Source of the DNA: Carcharhinus longimanus
Lineage: Eukaryota
Direction of reading: 5' to 3'
NCBI GenBank assembly: GCA_030264375.1
Contig: JASCQW010000099.1
Coordinates: 42,132,826-42,196,825 of the forward strand
Length of the DNA stretch: 64,000 nt
Shown: positions 22,976-38,605 of the stretch, one piece after another
How positions within the stretch are numbered: the stretch's first letter is position 1
How the letters are laid out: each line of letters starts with the position of its first letter
Translations under genes and position numbers: made by a program
The notes under the pieces: generated by a model
Database searches by the model: none
Seen by the model: the letters and a program-made list of their open reading frames with translations, nothing else
Told to the model about the DNA's origin: nothing

Positions 22976-23174
22976 ATTTCTGGTTTGTTGATGCTTTCCT
23001 TTTTCCTCTGTCCCCTGCATTATTCACTGAACTTCTGCTCAGTCTATTCTGCGCACTCAACTCCACTTTCCTGNNNNNNNNNNNNNNNNNNNNNNNNNNN
23101 NNNNNNNNNNNNNNNNNNNNNNNNNNNNNNNNNNNNNNNNNNNNNNNNNNNNNNNNNNNNNNNNNNNNNNNNNC

Positions 23175-23370
23175 ACTTTCCTGCCTGTCTCCCATAACCC
23201 TCAATTCCCTTGCCAATCAAAGATCTGCTTAACTCAAATTTAAAAATATTCAATGACCCAGCCTCCACTGCTTGCTGGGGAAAGGTATTCCAAACCTTCT
23301 GAGATAAATTTCTCTTCACCTCTGCTAAATAGGAGACCCTTTATTTTTCTGTACCCCAGGATCTAGATTG
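23175..23370 (-). mobile_element. CR1 3' fragment
   Basis: SQKVWNTFPQQAVEAGSLNIFKFELSRSLIGKGIEGYG. Confidence 0.85.
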
Positions 23371-24059
23371 TAGGGGAAGGCCCACTACTGGCCTCCTTAC
23401 TGTCTGATTAACATGTAGTCTGGCAGGCCTTCCTAAAAAGCAGTATGGATCTCTGACCAGCTCAAACTAGTGAGGACATTATATCAGATAGGAATGATTC
23501 ACGGAGACCAACATGTTTTTATTGTACTAAGACAAATGTTACGGACAAGGGAGAGTTAGTGTCCCATTTGTCCACCTCTCAACTGACAAAAGATAGATGT
23601 GTTTTTAAAGAAGTGTTTAATCACCACCTCCAAGTACTGCAGATTTCTAAAACAGACAAATAACAGTTTCTCTAGCAAGTTTTTAAAAAGGATAAATACC
23701 CACTCAACACCCAAAATGTTTGTTGCAGTACATGCTCGTATACTGCTGCTATAATGTTATTATTGGAATTGATCGATCCGTGCTATTGCACTGGCCCTGT
23801 TCCAATGCCACAAGATCATATTGTAATCCTTCATTAAAATTATGTACATGGAATGTTGTCATCAAGTATAAAATAGTCTTTTCCATATTCCTAGTAGTGA
23901 GAAGCACAGAGTGCACAGTTTGTGATTTTCAGATCATTAACTTCCATTCGTGGAAAAATCACTGCAATTCTGTGTGCTTGTCCTCATTGAGTGCTATTTT
24001 CTGCCAGTATCTGCTAGCTGCTCTCAAAGTTGTTGGACGAGTGTGCTTGGGAATGTAAT

Positions 24060-25280
24060 CTAGCATTTCTAGACATCAAAGGAGTTTGGAGCATTGAGGG
24101 GGACGGTAATCTGAACAGAACCTTTCTGAGGTCAATTAGGTAAACTGCCCTTTGCTCCTTAAGAACCATCAGAGAGTAGGATAGGGAGAGAAGAAAAAGA
24201 AGAATGTGGCAGGGGATATAGAAATATGAGAGGGATGAAGGGGAGGAACTCATAGGAGAAGAGGGTAAAGGAAACAAAGGGAGACTGGGTCAGAAAGCAG
24301 AGGCTTGGAAGCGCAGGCAAGGGGAGCAGGGATGGATTGAGACAGTAAGGGAGGGAGAAGGGGCTGGTTGGCAGGCACTCTCAATGGGAAGAGGGAAAAA
24401 AAAGAAAACTGGACAGTCATCAAAATTTTGCTTGCTATAATGTCAATGAGGATTGCATTGCTACATTTATGCATTTTCTGTTTTTGATGTAGCAGATTTT
24501 GGGAGGGGGGTCAGAAGTGACACACTACAGGCATCTAAGTTTGGCAAATAGGAATATTGTAAGCACATAAAGAAAAATGCTTGAAACTAAGGTTTTCATC
24601 AAGGCTGGATAAAAATGATGAAGTCAACAGTCTACCTGGGTGACAGATAGTCAACATTTAGACAAATATGGTATTTTGTAGATACTTGCAATTATGAATG
24701 TCATCAGAAAAGGTATCAGCCCATTTTAATAGGGGAGAAGATCGTTGGCAAGCCAGTAATAATTTTAAATTGTTAACTTTGTCAAAGGCCAAAATGATCA
24801 TCTGTGGGTTCCCATTTAGCTGGATAGTTGACAGAGAGGAACTCAATAACATAAACATAGCAGATAGAACATCAACAAAGTTGTGGATGACAACAATATT
24901 GATCTCTTTGAATCTGATGAGGAGGAGGGCATTGCAGAAGCTAAGAGAATCAAGTCAAATTCAAAATGATGCTAAAAAAATCCAAGAAGCCAGCACTCAT
25001 TGTCACATTGTTGGTGTTATTGGGATAATTAAATTGACATTTCCGAAGTAGAAGAGTGCACAGTGATAGTGGATAATTTAGATTGGGGTTCCATCAGTCC
25101 GGTTCCTGGCATATTGAAGCTACAGATTCAGTGTATATAAAGATGACATGGTGGAACAAGCTGCCACTGCATTTGAAGATTACATACAGTTTGTTAATAC
25201 AGATGAAGTTTGAAACAGCAACTAATGAATACTTACAGAAAAAAATAAGTTTTTTCAAAGCTGCCTGCTACCCATAGTGC
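24060..25280 (-). mobile_element. Ancient L2-like LINE remnant
   Basis: Purine-rich 3'-UTR-like block plus heavily decayed RT-like stretch; no clean motif. Confidence 0.35.
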
Positions 25281-26876
25281 AACAGTGCAGGGAGACTCAC
25301 GTCATGCTTCACTGAAGGAAATTGTAGAATGGGGTTTTGAGACAAATAGCAAGATAAAAGATTGTTCTCTAAGTCGGAAGGATCCCATTAAAGCACACAT
25401 AAAAACTTGCAGCTATTACAAAAATAATTAACAGCAATTTTAAAGTAATGTTTACAGGTGACAGTGAATACTGATATTGGTACTATAATGGTCAGCAATC
25501 TGTTTTGTTGTATGCAGATTACCTACACCAAGGATAGTAAACATGCTTAAACATCAAGGGAATAATTGGACCCAGATGGAAAAGAAAAGAATGGGAAGGA
25601 CGAGGAAGAGGAGATAGATGGGAGGGGATAAGTGAAGAAGGGAGGGTGAATGAGAGGGACTACTCAGAAAAAGTGTGAGCACATAGTGGGAGAGAGGAAG
25701 GCTATTTAGTAATCTTTAAAGCTCCAGTTTCAGGTCAAATTTCAGCTCTCTGGAGAAAGTGTTTTTCAAACAGTTAATATCAAGAGGCTGGTTCAATTAT
25801 TTTAGTAGGCTTTTTTTCTCACTTTAATTACACATGATATAAAGTACATATTGTGTGAGGCTTAGTCTAAAGATGAAATGCCAATGTGTGCCTTTTCACT
25901 TAGTGTTATTTGACAGGAATTGATGTCTACTTACTGCAGGTAAATGTTGGCCTTTTGAAAGGAATTTTCCAACTGAAGTGCAATACAACTGTTCCATTTG
26001 TTTTGAATTGAAATATCGTGATTTAATTATTTTAATAGTAGTATTTGTAGAATCAGTGCTCCAGTATGTACAAACTAAGTGATTTCAAAAGTCACACTAC
26101 ACTAAAGAATTTGATTATAAGAAAGGAAGAGTGGATGGCTGCTGCCCCCATTGTATCGGCTGCTTTTGCATCATCTCAAAAACAAAGCGGATCCAAGACT
26201 TCCATGTAGCTTTACAGCTGCAGCGGATGACTGGTGGAGGATGTTTCTCTGTTTTACTCTTTGTTGCAGTCCACCAAGTATTGTGAATCTAGACACTATG
26301 TGGCAAGGTGAGAAGATAGGTTGCAAGAACTACCTCATCATGCTCACGGCATTATTCAACATCACACTCATGGCTGAGTTACTATTTTAATATACAACAG
26401 TTAACACAAGTCATTTTACATGGGGTAAACATAAGGGAAAAAAGACCTGTATAATGCACCAATAACATGAAGGAAAGCAATTTCAAATAAAGAACATTTC
26501 AAATCTTCCATTTCTAATTTTTAATATAAGCACATTTGCAGTTGTCAGAAAACATTTAGCGCACAGTATGCTATGACAACAAACGTAAATAGGATTCATT
26601 CTTGGTATTCAGCAATGCTATATTCATCTGTAACAGTTGTTCCATGCTACTACAATAATGTGTACACTTTGAAGATGACATTACTTCATGGAAGTAGGAT
26701 GAGAAGGTGGGGAGAAGTGGAAAAATGTAAACTTTTGACTCAAAGTAGAAACATTCATTAAAACTATTCACAGTGGTAGAAAACATCTTCTTGCCATTGA
26801 TTTTATGATTGAAACAGCAACCAAATCCATTGATAAATATATTAATTTCATACTGAAGAAAAAAAGCTATATACTA

Positions 26877-27146
<270 letters not shown>

Positions 27147-27427
27147 TCACTGAATGATTATTTTCAAAGCATTGGAAATGACAATTCAGTTCATCATGTG
27201 TGTTAATTTCTTAATTGCAGCTATGTACATTCTACTGTTATTTTCCATTTTCCAATATAAGCGATTGACAATTATCATAGAATATCTAAGGTGCAGAAGG
27301 AGGCCATTCAGCCCATCGGCTGGCACCAAACCACTGAAAGAGCATCTTATTTAAGCTGTGTGGTCAATTTCCTCAATTCCTTGGAGAAATTGGACTGTGG
27401 ACTGAAAAATTCCATAATCTGATTTAT

Positions 27428-27737
27428 GGCACAGTGACACAGTGGTTTGCCCTGTGTCTCACAGCACTGGGACTTCGTTTCAATTCTGGCCTTGGGTCAC
27501 TATCAGTGTTGAGTTTGCACATTCACCTGGTATGTTGCCTCCAGGTGCTCCAGTATTCTCCCACAGTCCAAAGATGTGCAGGTTAGGCTGATTGGCCATG
27601 TTAAATTGCCCCTTATTGTCAGGAAGATTAGCAGGGTAAATTTGTGGGGTTATGGGGATAGGGCCTGGGTGGGATTGTTTTCAGTGCAGGCTCAATGGGC
27701 CAAATGACTTCCTTTTGCACCATATAAATTCTACGAT
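27428..27737 (+). mobile_element. HE1-type tRNA-derived V-SINE
   Basis: GGCACAGTGACACAGTGG A-box-like head, CCCACAGTCCAAAGATGTGCAGGTTAGG V-domain, CR1-like tail. Confidence 0.88.
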
Positions 27738-28484
27738 ACCCAGACTTTCAAAAAGTACTTGACAAAGTTCTACATAAAAAGTTAACAGTTAAATTCAAAC
27801 CTGTGGAGTTTCAGGATAAATATTGTGAATGGATAAGCAATTAGTTAGAAAAAAATGTAGAAAACTGATGTGTATTGATTAGAGGGGCTAAAGCAAGGTT
27901 TTAGGAAACTAAGAATAGTGATTATGTTATGGTATTAGTAATCCAGAGGCCTGGACTAATGGTCTGGAAGCATGAGTTCAAATCCCACCATGGCAGCCAG
28001 GGAAACAAAATTTAATTAGCACTGTAGCTCTTGACACCAGCCAGCCAGATGTTAAAAACAATTGTGTATGTACACACAGTCTGCACTGTAGCCACCAGTG
28101 TTATGCACAGTTTCTGCTGTCTTTGATATGATTGGCATGTACCTGTCAGCTGGTGTCAGTATCGGTTTGCACCTGTGCTCTGTCCAGTGGCCTGAGGCAT
28201 TGCCACCTCTCATCACCACTCCCCTCCTTCCTCAGTCCATCCTGTGCATCACATTTTACTCACAACCCTTCTCCAAGTTCTCACCAGCCCTACCTGCAGT
28301 ACTGGTCAAATACAGAGGAAATTGTCCGGTACATTGACCATCATTCAATCCCAGAAAAGAAACATCAGGGGCTAGATAAAGAGCAAAGTGGCACACTGCC
28401 CATTTTTATTTTAAAAAGCCATCTATTAAAGAGAAGAGGATTTGATATTGTTTGTAGTTTCCGGTTCGAGATGTATTTCTTCCA

Positions 28485-29240
28485 GAACATAGAACATTAC
28501 AGCACAGTACAGGCCCTTTGGCCCTCAATGTTGTGCCAAGCTATGTCCAAACCCAAGGTCAAGCTATCGCAGTCCCTATAATTCTGGTACGCTCCATGTG
28601 CCTATCCAATAACTGCTTGAAAGTTCCTAAAGTCTCCGATTCCACTATCACAGCAGGCAGTCTATTCCGCACCCCAACCACTCTCTGAGTGAAGAATCTA
28701 CCTTGGACATCCTTCCTATATCTCCCACCATGAACCTTATAGTTATGCTCCCTAGTAACAGCTACATCCACCTGAGGAAATAGTCTCTGCATGTCCACTC
28801 TATCAATCCCCCTCATCATCTTAAGCCTCTATTAAGTTGCCTCTCATTCTCCTCTACTTTAAAGAGAAAAGCCCCAGCTCCCTCAACCTTTCCTCAAGAC
28901 TTGCCCTCCAAACCAGGCATCATCCTGGTAAATCTCCTCTGCACTCTCTCCAATGCTTCCACATCCTCCTCATAGTGAGGTGACCAGAACGGAACACAGT
29001 ATTCCAAATGTGGTCTCACCAACGTCCTATACAGTTGCAGCATAACCCCACGGCTGTTAAACTCAAAACGCCCTGTTAATAAACTCTAACACACTATAGG
29101 CCTTCTTCACAGCTCTATCCACTTGAGTGGGAACTTTCAAAGGTCTGTGGATATGAACCCCAAGATCTCTCTGTTCCTCCACATTCGTCAGAACCCTGCC
29201 GTTGACCCTGTATTCAGCATTCAAGTTTGTCCTACCAGAA
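28485..29240 (-). mobile_element. CR1 LINE 3' portion
   Basis: EEQRDLGVHIHRPLKVPTQVDRAVKKAY...MMRGIDRVD; AGAACAT repeat tail at 28485. Confidence 0.92.
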
Positions 29241-29274
29241 TTCACTTGACTCGTTCCTAGGATGAGGGACCCCT

Positions 29275-29868
29275 ATAGTCATAGAGGTTTACAGCATGGA
29301 AGCAAGCTCTTTGACCAAACTTGTCCATGCCACCCGTTTATTTGGCCACTAAGCTAGTTCCAATTGCCCGCGTTTGGCCCATATCGCTCTATACCCATCT
29401 TACCTATGTAATTGTCTAAATGCTTTTCAAAAGGCAATATTGTACCTGCCTCTACTGCCTCTGGCAGCTCGTTCCAGACACTCACCACCCTCTGTGAAAA
29501 AATTGCCCCTCTGGACCCGTTTGTGTTCTCCTCCTTCCCTTAAACCTGTGCCCTCTAGCTTTAGACTTCGCTACCTTTGGGAAAAGATATTGACTATCTA
29601 GCTGATCAATGCCTCTCATTTTATAGATCTCTATAAGATCATTCCTCAACATCCTACAGTCCAGAGGAAGAAAGTCCCAGTCTATCCAGCCTCTCCTCAT
29701 AACTCAAACCATCAACTCCTGGTAGCATCCTAGTAAATCTTTTCTGCACTTTTTCTACTTTAATAATATCCTTTCTACAATAGGGTGATCAGAACTGTAC
29801 ACAGTATTCCAAATGTGGCTGTACCAATGCCTTGTACAACTGCAATAAGACGTCCCAACTCCTGTATC
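29275..29868 (-). mobile_element. CR1 LINE 3' portion
   Basis: LRNDLIEIYKMRGIDQLDSQYLFPKV; TAGTCATAG tail. Confidence 0.9.
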
Positions 29869-30021
29869 TGGGTTTCTGGATTATTAGCCTAGTAAGATTA
29901 TACTACTATGCTACTGTCATTCTTTAAACAAGGTTTTCTTTTCTTGTACTTTGTAGAAATTGTATTTGATTTTGTTTGTTTGTGGTAAATTTTCTAGGCT
30001 AATGTTCTTTTTTAATCACAG

Positions 30022-30115
30022 GATGGTGATTCTTCATTGAGAAATGCTGCCTCCTTCCCTTTAAGATCTCCACAAGCAGTGTGTTCTCCTGCGAGCAGCG
30101 ATGGAACTCCAAAGG
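30022..30115 (+). CDS. NIPBL: Isolated NIPBL (Nipped-B-like cohesin loader) exon, 94 nt, phase 0-1, antisense within an EML6 intron; duplicated fragment or misplaced sequence
   Basis: TTTTTTAATCACAG|GAT GGT GAT ... CCA AAG G|GTAAAT encodes DGDSSLRNAASFPLRSPQAVCSPASSDGTPK(G); human NIPBL as recalled reads DGDSSTMRNAASFPLRSPQPVCSPAGSEGTPKG. No neighbouring NIPBL exons were found in the window. Confidence 0.88.
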
Positions 30116-30183
30116 GTAAATTTATAAAGTTGCATGTACTGAACCTATCCTTAATACTGTGTATAATATAATTAATATTTTAG

Positions 30184-30237
30184 ACTTTTTGCGAAGAAGC
30201 ATGCTAATTGAAGAACTGGACGATGTGGGCATGAAGG
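30184..30237 (+). other. Candidate 54-nt phase 1-1 cassette exon downstream of the NIPBL exon
   Basis: ATTTTAG|AC TTT TTG CGA ... ATG AAG G|GTAATT. In frame with the upstream exon, no stop, (D)FLRRSMLIEELDDVGMK(G), after a 68-nt GT-AG intron. Confidence 0.4.
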
Positions 30238-30347
30238 GTAATTGTTTCCTGGCTTTCAAGGCACTTGGTTTCCATAATTGGACAATGATATTGAGACCAG
30301 TTGAAAATTCCGTTTCGTGTTCTTTTCGGCACATGGCTGCAGTCCCT

Positions 30348-30475
30348 GGGCGAGATTTTACGGCTTTGTTCTTCCCAATACCATAAAATCCCACCTGAGG
30401 TCAACGCACCTTTCCATGGTCCGCTCCTCGCCCACTTCGATTCACGTGGCGGGTGGGGCGGTAAAATTCTGGCCC
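30348..30475. mobile_element. 128-bp Harbinger-type MITE
   Basis: TIRs GGGCGAGATTTTAC and GTAAAATTCTGGCCC. Confidence 0.75.
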
Positions 30476-31389
30476 CTTTCTTTGAGTGAAGCTTATAATA
30501 GTGACCCAATGTTTTTCTTGGCTTAGTTATGTCACAACTAGGACAGTTTCAAGAACTAGCTCTCACTGAAGTAAGACTTACATTGAGGGATGGGTGAACT
30601 AACTTATGACAGGGCATGGAAGAAGCTAAAGTAAAATTGAAGCATTTTCTATAGGTGGTGATATACATTTCTGAAATTATACTGATTGGGAATTAGAGTG
30701 ATGGCCCAATTACAGTGAAAGCTGTCCTTTTTATTTTGCTATCTTATTGCAGTATTATTGTTGGTATCTGGTTTGACTCTAAGGTTTGGATTTGTTTACT
30801 GTGTGTTAAAATTTAAGACAATTATATATGCAAAGATTTTAGATCATAGATCATTAGCATAATTTATTTGTGACTTTTTAATTTGCGATGATTTTATCTC
30901 AATTAAGTGTCAACAAAGAAACTAGTAGGCACTGTTTTTTGTTACAAACTTTTGTTTAATTAGAGTGATGAAAGTTATTTTGTATAAAGTAGATTGCTAG
31001 CTCAATTCTGATGTCCATCAGTTACATTGAGAGCTTCTGAATTAAACCATTGAACTGACCCGGAGAACAGTGTTTGCTCTAAGTTGCATGAGTACCCGAC
31101 CACGCAGTGGACCAGAAAGTGCTGCACAGCGGATAAACAGGCCATACATAAGAATGGCCTCTTTAACAAACATGTGTGACCTTGTGACAAGGACTGCATG
31201 ATGCACCAAACAACCCACGCACAGTGAGGGAAATTAGAGAAAGCATTTCCTCAGAATATGGACTAAACACTTTTCTGATGAATTCATAAAACTGCTGGCA
31301 TGTTCTGATTCAGGTTGTTTTCAATGCAGACATTTATGGGTTTAATTTTTACCTATTCAGCTGACTGGAAGATTGCACTGTGATGCATG

Positions 31390-32080
31390 ACTAGAATCAT
31401 AGAATGTCTGCAGCACAGGAGAAGGCTATTTTGGCTTATTGCATCTGTACTGATTTTCTGAAGGAGCAGTTCACCTAGTGCTCCCTTGCCTTCTCTCTGT
31501 AGCTGAGCATATTCTGTTTTCAAATATTAATCCAAATCCCCCAGGAATGTGTTGATTTGAACCTGGCTCTGCAGATTTGATGGGTTGAAGGACCTCTTCT
31601 GCACTGTAGGATTCTCTGTAGGACACACTAAGGCAGTGTATTCCAAGTGTAAGCAACTGCTACTTGTCCAAAAAAAAATCCTTATGTCACAGTTGCTGCT
31701 TTTGTCAGTCACCATAAATCTGTATCCTCTGGTTCTTAGTGCTTTCAGCAATGGTTTCTGTCCATCTGCACTGTGTAGATACCTCGTGGCCTCCACTCAA
31801 GCTTCTCTTCTCCAAGGGGAACAGTCAATTTCTCCAAGCTATCCACATAATTGAAGTTCCTCATCCATGCAACCATTCTGATGAAATTTTTCCCCATTCT
31901 TACCCCATTGAAGTTAGCCTTCCCCTATTAATTATTCCTCTAGATTGTTCCTTGCTCATTTCTATAGCCAAATTAAACCTAATAATGCAATGACCATGGT
32001 TCTGTAAATCATTTCCTACTGACCCTTGGTTGTTCATTCCCAAGAATCAGATTTAGCAGATTTTCCTTCCTTACTGGACT
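31390..32080 (-). mobile_element. CR1 3' fragments
   Basis: TAGAATCATAGAA tail; LRTRGYRFMV segment. Confidence 0.7.
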
Positions 32081-32099
32081 GAAAACATTCTGTTGTAGA

Positions 32100-33045
32100 A
32101 AATTCTGGTAGTACTCAGGTCTCGCTGTATTTATGGAGAGAGAAACAGTTAACATTTCGAGTGGAGTATGACTTTTCAGAAACGTAATGGGTTAGATGCT
32201 GTCAAAGGGTACAGTGCAGTAGGCTAGGGACAGAAATTAGTATGTGAGAGCAAGGTGGTGAATTACAATGACAAGGAACTAGAAGCTCAGTGGTGCATGA
32301 AGGTGTACCATCAAATAGTTACCCATCCTGCGTTTGGTCTGTGGTGTAGAGCAGTGAATACAGTATGTGAAACTGAAAGTAGTACCAGTAAATTGCTGCC
32401 TCCCTGGAATGAGCGTTTGGGGCCTAGGGTGGTGAGGAGGTGAAAGGGCAACTGTTACAGAAGAACATAAGAACTAGGAGCAGGAGTAGACCATCTGGCT
32501 CCTTGAACCTGCTCCACCATTCAGTAAGATCATGGCTGATCTTTTTCATGGACTCAGCTCCACTTACCTGCCTGCTTACCATAACTCAATTCGTTTACTG
32601 TTCAAAATTTATCTATCCTTGTCTTTAAAACATTCAATGAGTTGGCCTCAGTTGCTTCACTGGGCAGGGAATTCCACAGATCTACAACCCTGTGTAGATC
32701 AGTATGGCGTGGAGAAACTGGACAGGAGACGAAGGGAAGATATGTTCGGTAGTGAAGTCATGCTGAAGGTGCCAGAAATGATCGAGGATGATCCCTTGAA
32801 TGTGAAGGCTGGTGAAGTGGAAAATGAGGAAAAGGGAAACCCTATTGCAGCTCAGGGAAGAGAGGGGGATGCATGAGAATAGAAATGCAGGAAATAGGTC
32901 AGACAGGGTTGAGGATCCAGTCCACCACAGTGGAGGGTAACTAGAAACACAGTTATGGAAGTGCTTCATCAGAGCAGATGTGACAGACGCTGAGAAACTG
33001 GAAGAATGGAATAGAATTATTACAGGAAGCAAGGTGTGAAGAAGT
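32100..33045 (-). mobile_element. Penelope-like element remnant interrupted by a CR1 3' end (about 32460-32695)
   Basis: RVSLFLIFHFTSLHIQGIILDHFWHLQHDFTTEHIFPS, typical of the PLE RT-GIY-YIG linker; AAGAACATAAGA CR1 tail. Confidence 0.7.
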
Positions 33046-34220
33046 AGGTTACTATACCTACTTGTGACTAATAAATAAACTTAACTTTAAACTTATGAGC
33101 AGAAAAAGGCAGAGTTGGATGGAAGAAGGAATATTCCGCATATCATACAAAAAGACAGGCACCTTATGGATACCTGTAACCACACCTTGAACATGGGGGA
33201 AGTGAAATGAATTAAAGGGGAAATTCTTCAATTTTCTAATTCCTTTTTTCACAGGCCAACAATGAGGCAACGAAGCGTAGGAGGGTGCTGGTGGATGGGG
33301 GCTAGTTGGACTGCAGGGGAGAAATGAAGAGCCCTCAAATCATCCAGGGATTTTGCGGGGGGGCAGGGGGCGTGAATGAATGGAGGCGCAGAAACTGAAA
33401 ACTGCATCAACGTTGCTTGCAATTTCCACCTTTCACCACCACATGACCCGACTTTGACAGTTCCCTTCCTTGACTACTTTAATTTCCATACACATTTGTT
33501 CCTCAATATTTTGCCCACTAGTTGGTAACCTGTAGACTATACTGAGTAAAGGTTGTTTCTTAGATGTAGCCTAATAAATTCTATCCATCACCCCGGCTAT
33601 GTTCTTTTAGTCAGTATGCCATTCCTTCTCCTTTTCTCTTTTCCAATCTTTGCTGAACTCCCTGTATCCAGAAATATTTAATTCTCGGGCCTAATCTTCA
33701 TTGAAACAGCTCTGTAGCCACAGCATCATATTTCTATGTGGCTAACAGAACCTGCAGCTAAGCAATCTTATTTAGTGTATGCTGCACGTTCACATACATA
33801 CATCTCATCATGTTACAAACAGGGTAAATAAATGGGAACCAGTGAATGTAGTGTATTTGGATTTTCAGAAGACGTTCGATAAGGTGCCACATAAAATTAA
33901 CCTATGTTACAAAAAAACATGCATGCTGGTCACAATCATAAAATGGAATTTGGCTGAACAAGAATTTTTAATGAAAAAAGCAACAGGCAATCTACTAAAG
34001 TTGGGGAGTTGTCATTTCACTACACAGTTTTGTAATAAACCTTGTCAGGAAGGCGAATGGGATGCTGGCCTTCATAGCGAGGGGGATTGAATATAAAAGT
34101 AGGGAGGTCTTGCTGCAGCTNNNNNNNNNNNNNNNNNNNNNNNNNNNNNNNNNNNNNNNNNNNNNNNNNNNNNNNNNNNNNNNNNNNNNNNNNNNNNNNN
34201 NNNNNNNNNNNNNNNNNNNN

Positions 34221-38359: not shown

Positions 38360-38605
<246 letters not shown>

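Follow-up and report, generated by a model that had tools for sequence, protein, structure and literature searches.

In this work we analysed a window of 64 kb of DNA (C99:42132826-42196825), taken from an assembly of 2.68 Gb in 68,774 contigs. Exons of EML6, identified by tblastn, lie on the minus strand of the window in order. Between two of them, at approximately 38387-38458 (tblastn limits) and at 26895-27080, the plus strand carries an exon of another gene, NIPBL, at 30022-30115. As assembled, this exon is thus antisense within an EML6 intron, as proposed by an earlier sequence-only reading, and the contig free of Ns that holds it (23174-34120) also holds the EML6 exon at 26895-27080. That reading had also noted no further NIPBL exon in the 64 kb, and tblastn with four NIPBL proteins agreed (next best E 0.55). 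A literature search, judged by titles and the beginnings of abstracts, found no report of an overlap between NIPBL and EML6. Across the assembly EML6 gave 25 matches, 18 in order on C99 and seven on C112 (C112:24041745-24163685, plus strand); the latter, which are 63-88% identical, likely represent the paralogue EML5. The window contains 12 gaps (957 N), for the most part 100 or 10 N long. CR1-like repeats abut several of them, a picture resembling a short-read scaffolded assembly.

The NIPBL exon is open over its 94 nucleotides, is preceded by AG with a T-rich pyrimidine tract on its 5' side and is followed by GT. Its translation is free of stops, with phase 0 at entry and phase 1 at exit. 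Of 28 candidates, 14 proteins matched a 41-residue query with the exon, at 85-94% identity and with a best E of 1.7e-9. Five carry the name NIPBL (elephant shark, skate twice, camel and colugo), one is hypothetical and eight are unnamed; the nearest proteins suggest a cartilaginous fish as the source. All 14 share the NIPBL residues upstream of the exon, and 11 share those downstream. The 31-residue exon peptide alone had no match in the PDB at E 10. Peptide homology, together with splice sites and phases that fit the neighbouring NIPBL exons on scaffold C43 described below, upheld the assignment to NIPBL and the description of an intact exon with acceptor, donor and phases 0 and 1. By human NIPBL numbering we take it to be exon 8. 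Its genomic rather than retrocopy nature, also proposed earlier, was likewise upheld. The T-richness of the flanks mentioned in the sequence-only reading was strong upstream alone (T-A skew +0.35 at 29870-30020, against +0.07 at 30116-31390 and -0.10 at 32700-34040). Strand skew was rejected as a marker of the block around the exon, being inconsistent along it. In the annotated skate NIPBL isoform X5 the exon studied here is kept and the next one is skipped, which fits an exon end in phase 1.

A search of the assembly with skate NIPBL resulted in 27 matches, of which 25 lie in order on C43, one is the window exon on C99 and one is on C148. Pfam PF12830 (Nipped-B_C), the sole search used for the C-terminal part of NIPBL, gave four matches, all on C43. 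The window exon with its flanks, searched as DNA, returned a single candidate, namely itself, and the peptide search one match among two candidates. The downstream sequence (30470-32450) gave one full match, the other 39 hits being short repeat pieces of 69-87% identity. Copy counts from these genome searches are a floor, the first look having been loose for the exon searches and stricter for skate NIPBL.

On C43 the NIPBL exon upstream of the expected position completes a codon with its last base, 512540 (phase 0), and the downstream exon begins at 519177 in phase 1, with one base needed. The 6636 bases between them include two gaps of 100 N (513242-513341 and 515697-515796). No match to the exon was found between these flanking exons, the best being 13 nt long and outside the interval. 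When the upstream C43 exon, the window exon and the downstream C43 exon are joined, the frame is open and the junction residues are as in relatives, whereas joining the two C43 exons directly leads to a stop after five residues. A NIPBL locus without the exon, or gapped at its place, had been named in advance as the finding that would tell against a genuine insertion, and this is the state of C43, where the slot is empty and interrupted by the two gaps. The two copies expected from a duplication were not seen, since the DNA, peptide and downstream 2-kb searches each gave a single one.

The match on C148 (33583698-33583781) is a second NIPBL exon outside the main locus, so that two of the 27 matches are displaced. 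It is a whole exon of 28 codons with intact AG and GT, 100% identical to skate NIPBL, and sits in a 3.6-kb piece bounded by gaps. It is missing from the corresponding slot on C43 (588299-611361), in which 10424 of 23063 positions are N.

Of the 22 public runs indexed, all available as contigs and none recorded as RNA, we compared contigs of four DNA runs (X1, X2, X6 and X7) with window positions 23174-34120 and with C43:512300-516500; X6 and X7 are labelled as organisms other than the source. The exon block was present in all four runs with 0 to about 2% differences, and in each of them one record covers the exon together with the sequence in front of it (29865-30021, plus strand), which contains a SINE-like head and the polypyrimidine tract and represents the end of the upstream NIPBL intron. 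The stretch downstream of the exon (30116-32486, plus strand), which would be the following NIPBL intron, is single-copy and tiled by overlapping records. It is followed by a high-copy repeat piece (32455-32694), within which 32487-32651 is unbridged among the records listed, and by a plus-strand intron stretch (32861-34043) that continues directly into C43:513455-513942 in an X7 record, with support from an X6 record. The contig closes at 34044-34120 with the start of a young CR1-like repeat on the plus strand, absent from the X7 contig, before a 100-N scaffold gap (34121-34220). The foreign block had been thought to end at 31390; it reaches the contig end at ~34120.

The X7 record (1689 letters, depth 9.31, minus strand) aligns with letters 502-1689 to window 32861-34043 and with letters 1-504 to C43:513455-513942. 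It thereby connects the right part of the block with NIPBL intron sequence shortly beyond the first C43 gap, and it skips 34044-34120 of the window and 513342-513454 of C43. These two skipped pieces are likely the two ends of one young insertion without counterpart in X7, the repeat start at the end of the window contig and the 3' end opening the C43 contig at 513342 likely belonging to the same element. Its absence from the X7 contig (organism C) would make this CR1-like insertion in the NIPBL intron lineage-specific or polymorphic. The X6 record (964 letters, depth 2, plus strand) aligns with letters 54-738 to window 33193-33885 and with letters 687-964 to C43:513950-514227. This link is weaker, as depth 2 is common in X6 and the two aligned parts share 52 letters within a repeat pair of 80% similarity. 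Both links agree with NIPBL in strand and order; to pair the records of the two comparisons we used their length, depth and strand and the way their coordinates complement each other, not ids. In X2, a 241-letter record with 70 letters left unplaced in front of C43:513455 would be compatible with the same link. No link was seen in X1, which has no differences from the window: a 1199-letter record departs from the window at 33999, and its remaining 261 letters do not appear among those listed on C43:512300-516500. Given this deviation, the last 120 bases of the window contig (33999-34120) may be wrong or allelic.

The links to C43 thus come from two of the four runs and concern the right part of the block. 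No single record extends from the exon to C43 among those listed in the four runs, and the chain from one to the other depends on records that overlap by 15-30 letters at 30380-30414 and, over 32487-32651, on the sequence of the window itself. No listed record crosses 28509-29790 or 32487-32651, which carries no weight in either direction.

On the left, no listed record bridges the way from the upstream NIPBL exon to the block. The records on C43 stop at 512585-512596, having entered the repeat next to that exon by 45-56 bases, and those on the block begin at 29791-29827, 38-74 bases inside the window repeat at 29279-29864. The latter belongs to a run of CR1-like repeats (28484-29864) and aligns with C43:512567-513133, a CR1-like repeat of the same type and strand, with 77% similarity and an alignment end at the same base. 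Identity along the pair slides between 0.57 and 0.88, with two exact stretches of 26 nt, no long identical stretch and no step to 100%. The simplest reading would be that the two represent one true copy, the middle of which may have been filled from other copies, differently at the two places. A search for exact overlaps of the window contig with the C43 gap edges yielded four matches of 19-26 nt, all in repeats, and no crossover point. The earlier description of a CR1-bounded block with a SINE head was correct in that repeats flank the exon at 28484-29864 and that their repeat status is shown by alignments; the names CR1 and SINE are used here as presumed labels. No continuation of the SINE-like head was found in the window or in C43:505001-535000; the hits were weak, the best of them, at another place in the window, covering 36 nt with 75% identity (E 0.004).

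A single copy, an empty and gapped slot on C43, a fit of phases and a contig link between the right part of the block and C43 were all observed. Because the window exon is the sole copy found and exactly the piece missing from NIPBL on C43, we conclude, with a probability of about 0.96, that it was misplaced by the assembly into the EML6 intron together with ~4.3 kb of its own flanking intron, and that its position is an artefact rather than a real feature. The chimeric contig carrying the true NIPBL exon, one of the explanations offered previously, is therefore the one that prevails. An assembly error of the fragmented-gene kind is recognised by just what was found: an exon absent from its gapped main locus, one copy in the assembly, and an independent link, here for the right part and in two of four runs. 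The block most likely corresponds to NIPBL intron-exon-intron sequence at about 29790-34120, with its home at the C43 gap 513242-513341. Shared CR1-like repeats would have led the scaffolding to place a contig with this content in the EML6 intron. Since the NIPBL and EML6 exons share an N-free contig, a false join within that contig must be assumed; it likely lies hidden in the similar repeats at 28484-29864 and would have been closed without Ns. The gap starting at 34121 is likely the false right join back to the EML6 intron, and the 100-N gap at C43 513242-513341 would have been left at the true place. The animal itself would splice this exon in the usual way between its NIPBL neighbours and would carry an unremarkable intron in EML6; NIPBL and EML6 are most likely both ordinary genes there.

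A real recent duplication or CR1-mediated transduction, favoured earlier, would place a second copy in EML6, with the source hidden in the C43 gap or collapsed. The slot on C43 being a gap, a hidden source is compatible with the assembly, and the block is bounded by repeats and lies in an N-free contig with an EML6 exon. Nevertheless, a duplicated gene fragment should be present twice with its source retained, a pair not seen in the assembly, as one copy was obtained in all three genome searches. No record listed joins the block to EML6, which is no proof of absence, and an orphan exon of the same type recurs on C148. At 30297-30317 each run has one record of at least 90%, with a depth near that of the records on the EML6 side (X1, 5.4 vs 6.2-7.6; X2, 11.6 vs 12.2; X6, 2.02 vs 2.0; X7, 8.25 vs 6.7-7.2), a weak argument, contig depth being no copy number. 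In LINE 3' transduction the carried DNA lies downstream of the 3' end of the element on the same strand, an arrangement not found here: the microsatellite tail of the left repeat, at ~29270-29285, marks the end away from the block. The general picture of LINE 3' transduction and retrotransposon-mediated exon shuffling, a gene fragment beside LINE-like repeats in a foreign locus, does resemble the window, but no second (source) copy was found, intron sequence is preserved over kilobases to either side, and in independent contigs the block runs on into the source gene. The true boundaries of the block, where a target-site duplication and a terminal tail would be expected, fall in repeats and a gap. 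With a gapped C43 lacking the exon, one copy, and the right part of the block linked to NIPBL, duplication or transduction was not borne out and appears highly improbable.

Even less probable is a private rearrangement in the sequenced animal, in which one haplotype would have a piece of NIPBL moved into EML6. In its favour, the two runs that provide the C43 links (X6 and X7) bear the labels of other organisms, and the X1 record, identical to the window, departs at 33999 with its 261 unplaced letters; this departure, however, also speaks against the window's own sequence there. A normal haplotype should have filled the slot on C43, and the orphan exon on C148 would need a second event. Loss of the exon also shifts the NIPBL frame, an argument that is supporting rather than absolute because early NIPBL truncations may be partly rescued by a downstream start. 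In humans, NIPBL frameshifts cause disease by haploinsufficiency, according to the available text of PMC8353280, in which the passage on lethality refers to Brd2/Brd4 and not to Nipbl. Finally, the exon could truly reside in the EML6 intron in this lineage and be trans-spliced to the NIPBL message, in keeping with its being intact and single-copy at the assembled place. Given that contigs of two other runs place the right part of the block in a NIPBL intron and that the C43 slot is gapped, we regard this as the most far-fetched of the explanations considered, with hardly any probability.

Misplacement by the assembly has known counterparts. The available part of one study describes, as a 'fragmented gene' form of false gene loss, exons of one gene split over scaffolds of an older assembly (bioRxiv 10.1101/2021.04.09.438906). 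NIPBL falls within this class, with one exon on C99, one on C148 and 25 matches on C43. It differs from what that text describes in that the proof there was a same-species long-read assembly and here consists of contigs of other runs, and in that the piece is embedded in an intron of another gene within an N-free contig. In bird assemblies made before long reads, misplaced contigs and erroneous sequence flanking gaps were described, for example at DUSP1 and SLIT1 (PMC5632298, available part). Exons missing at gaps, wrong sequence on the gap side and repeat-driven misplacement of contigs are common to these cases and ours, although the misplacements described there were local or haplotype-related and the present one is across scaffolds.

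The result is a warning on this assembly, in which two of 27 NIPBL matches lie off-scaffold and one false join is not flagged by any Ns. Orphan exons, apparent frameshifts and gene losses should therefore first be compared with the home locus; NIPBL would be called broken in an annotation restricted to C43. Should the window exon, improbably, be a true duplicate after all, with its source copy hidden in the C43 gap, an intact NIPBL exon with 4 kb of intron, antisense in EML6, would be a fresh substrate for exon shuffling from a dosage-sensitive cohesin-loader gene. A further difference was observed on C43 at ~519765, where the downstream NIPBL exon, close to its end, encodes a Cys in place of the Phe of elephant shark and skate, either a species variant or a base error.
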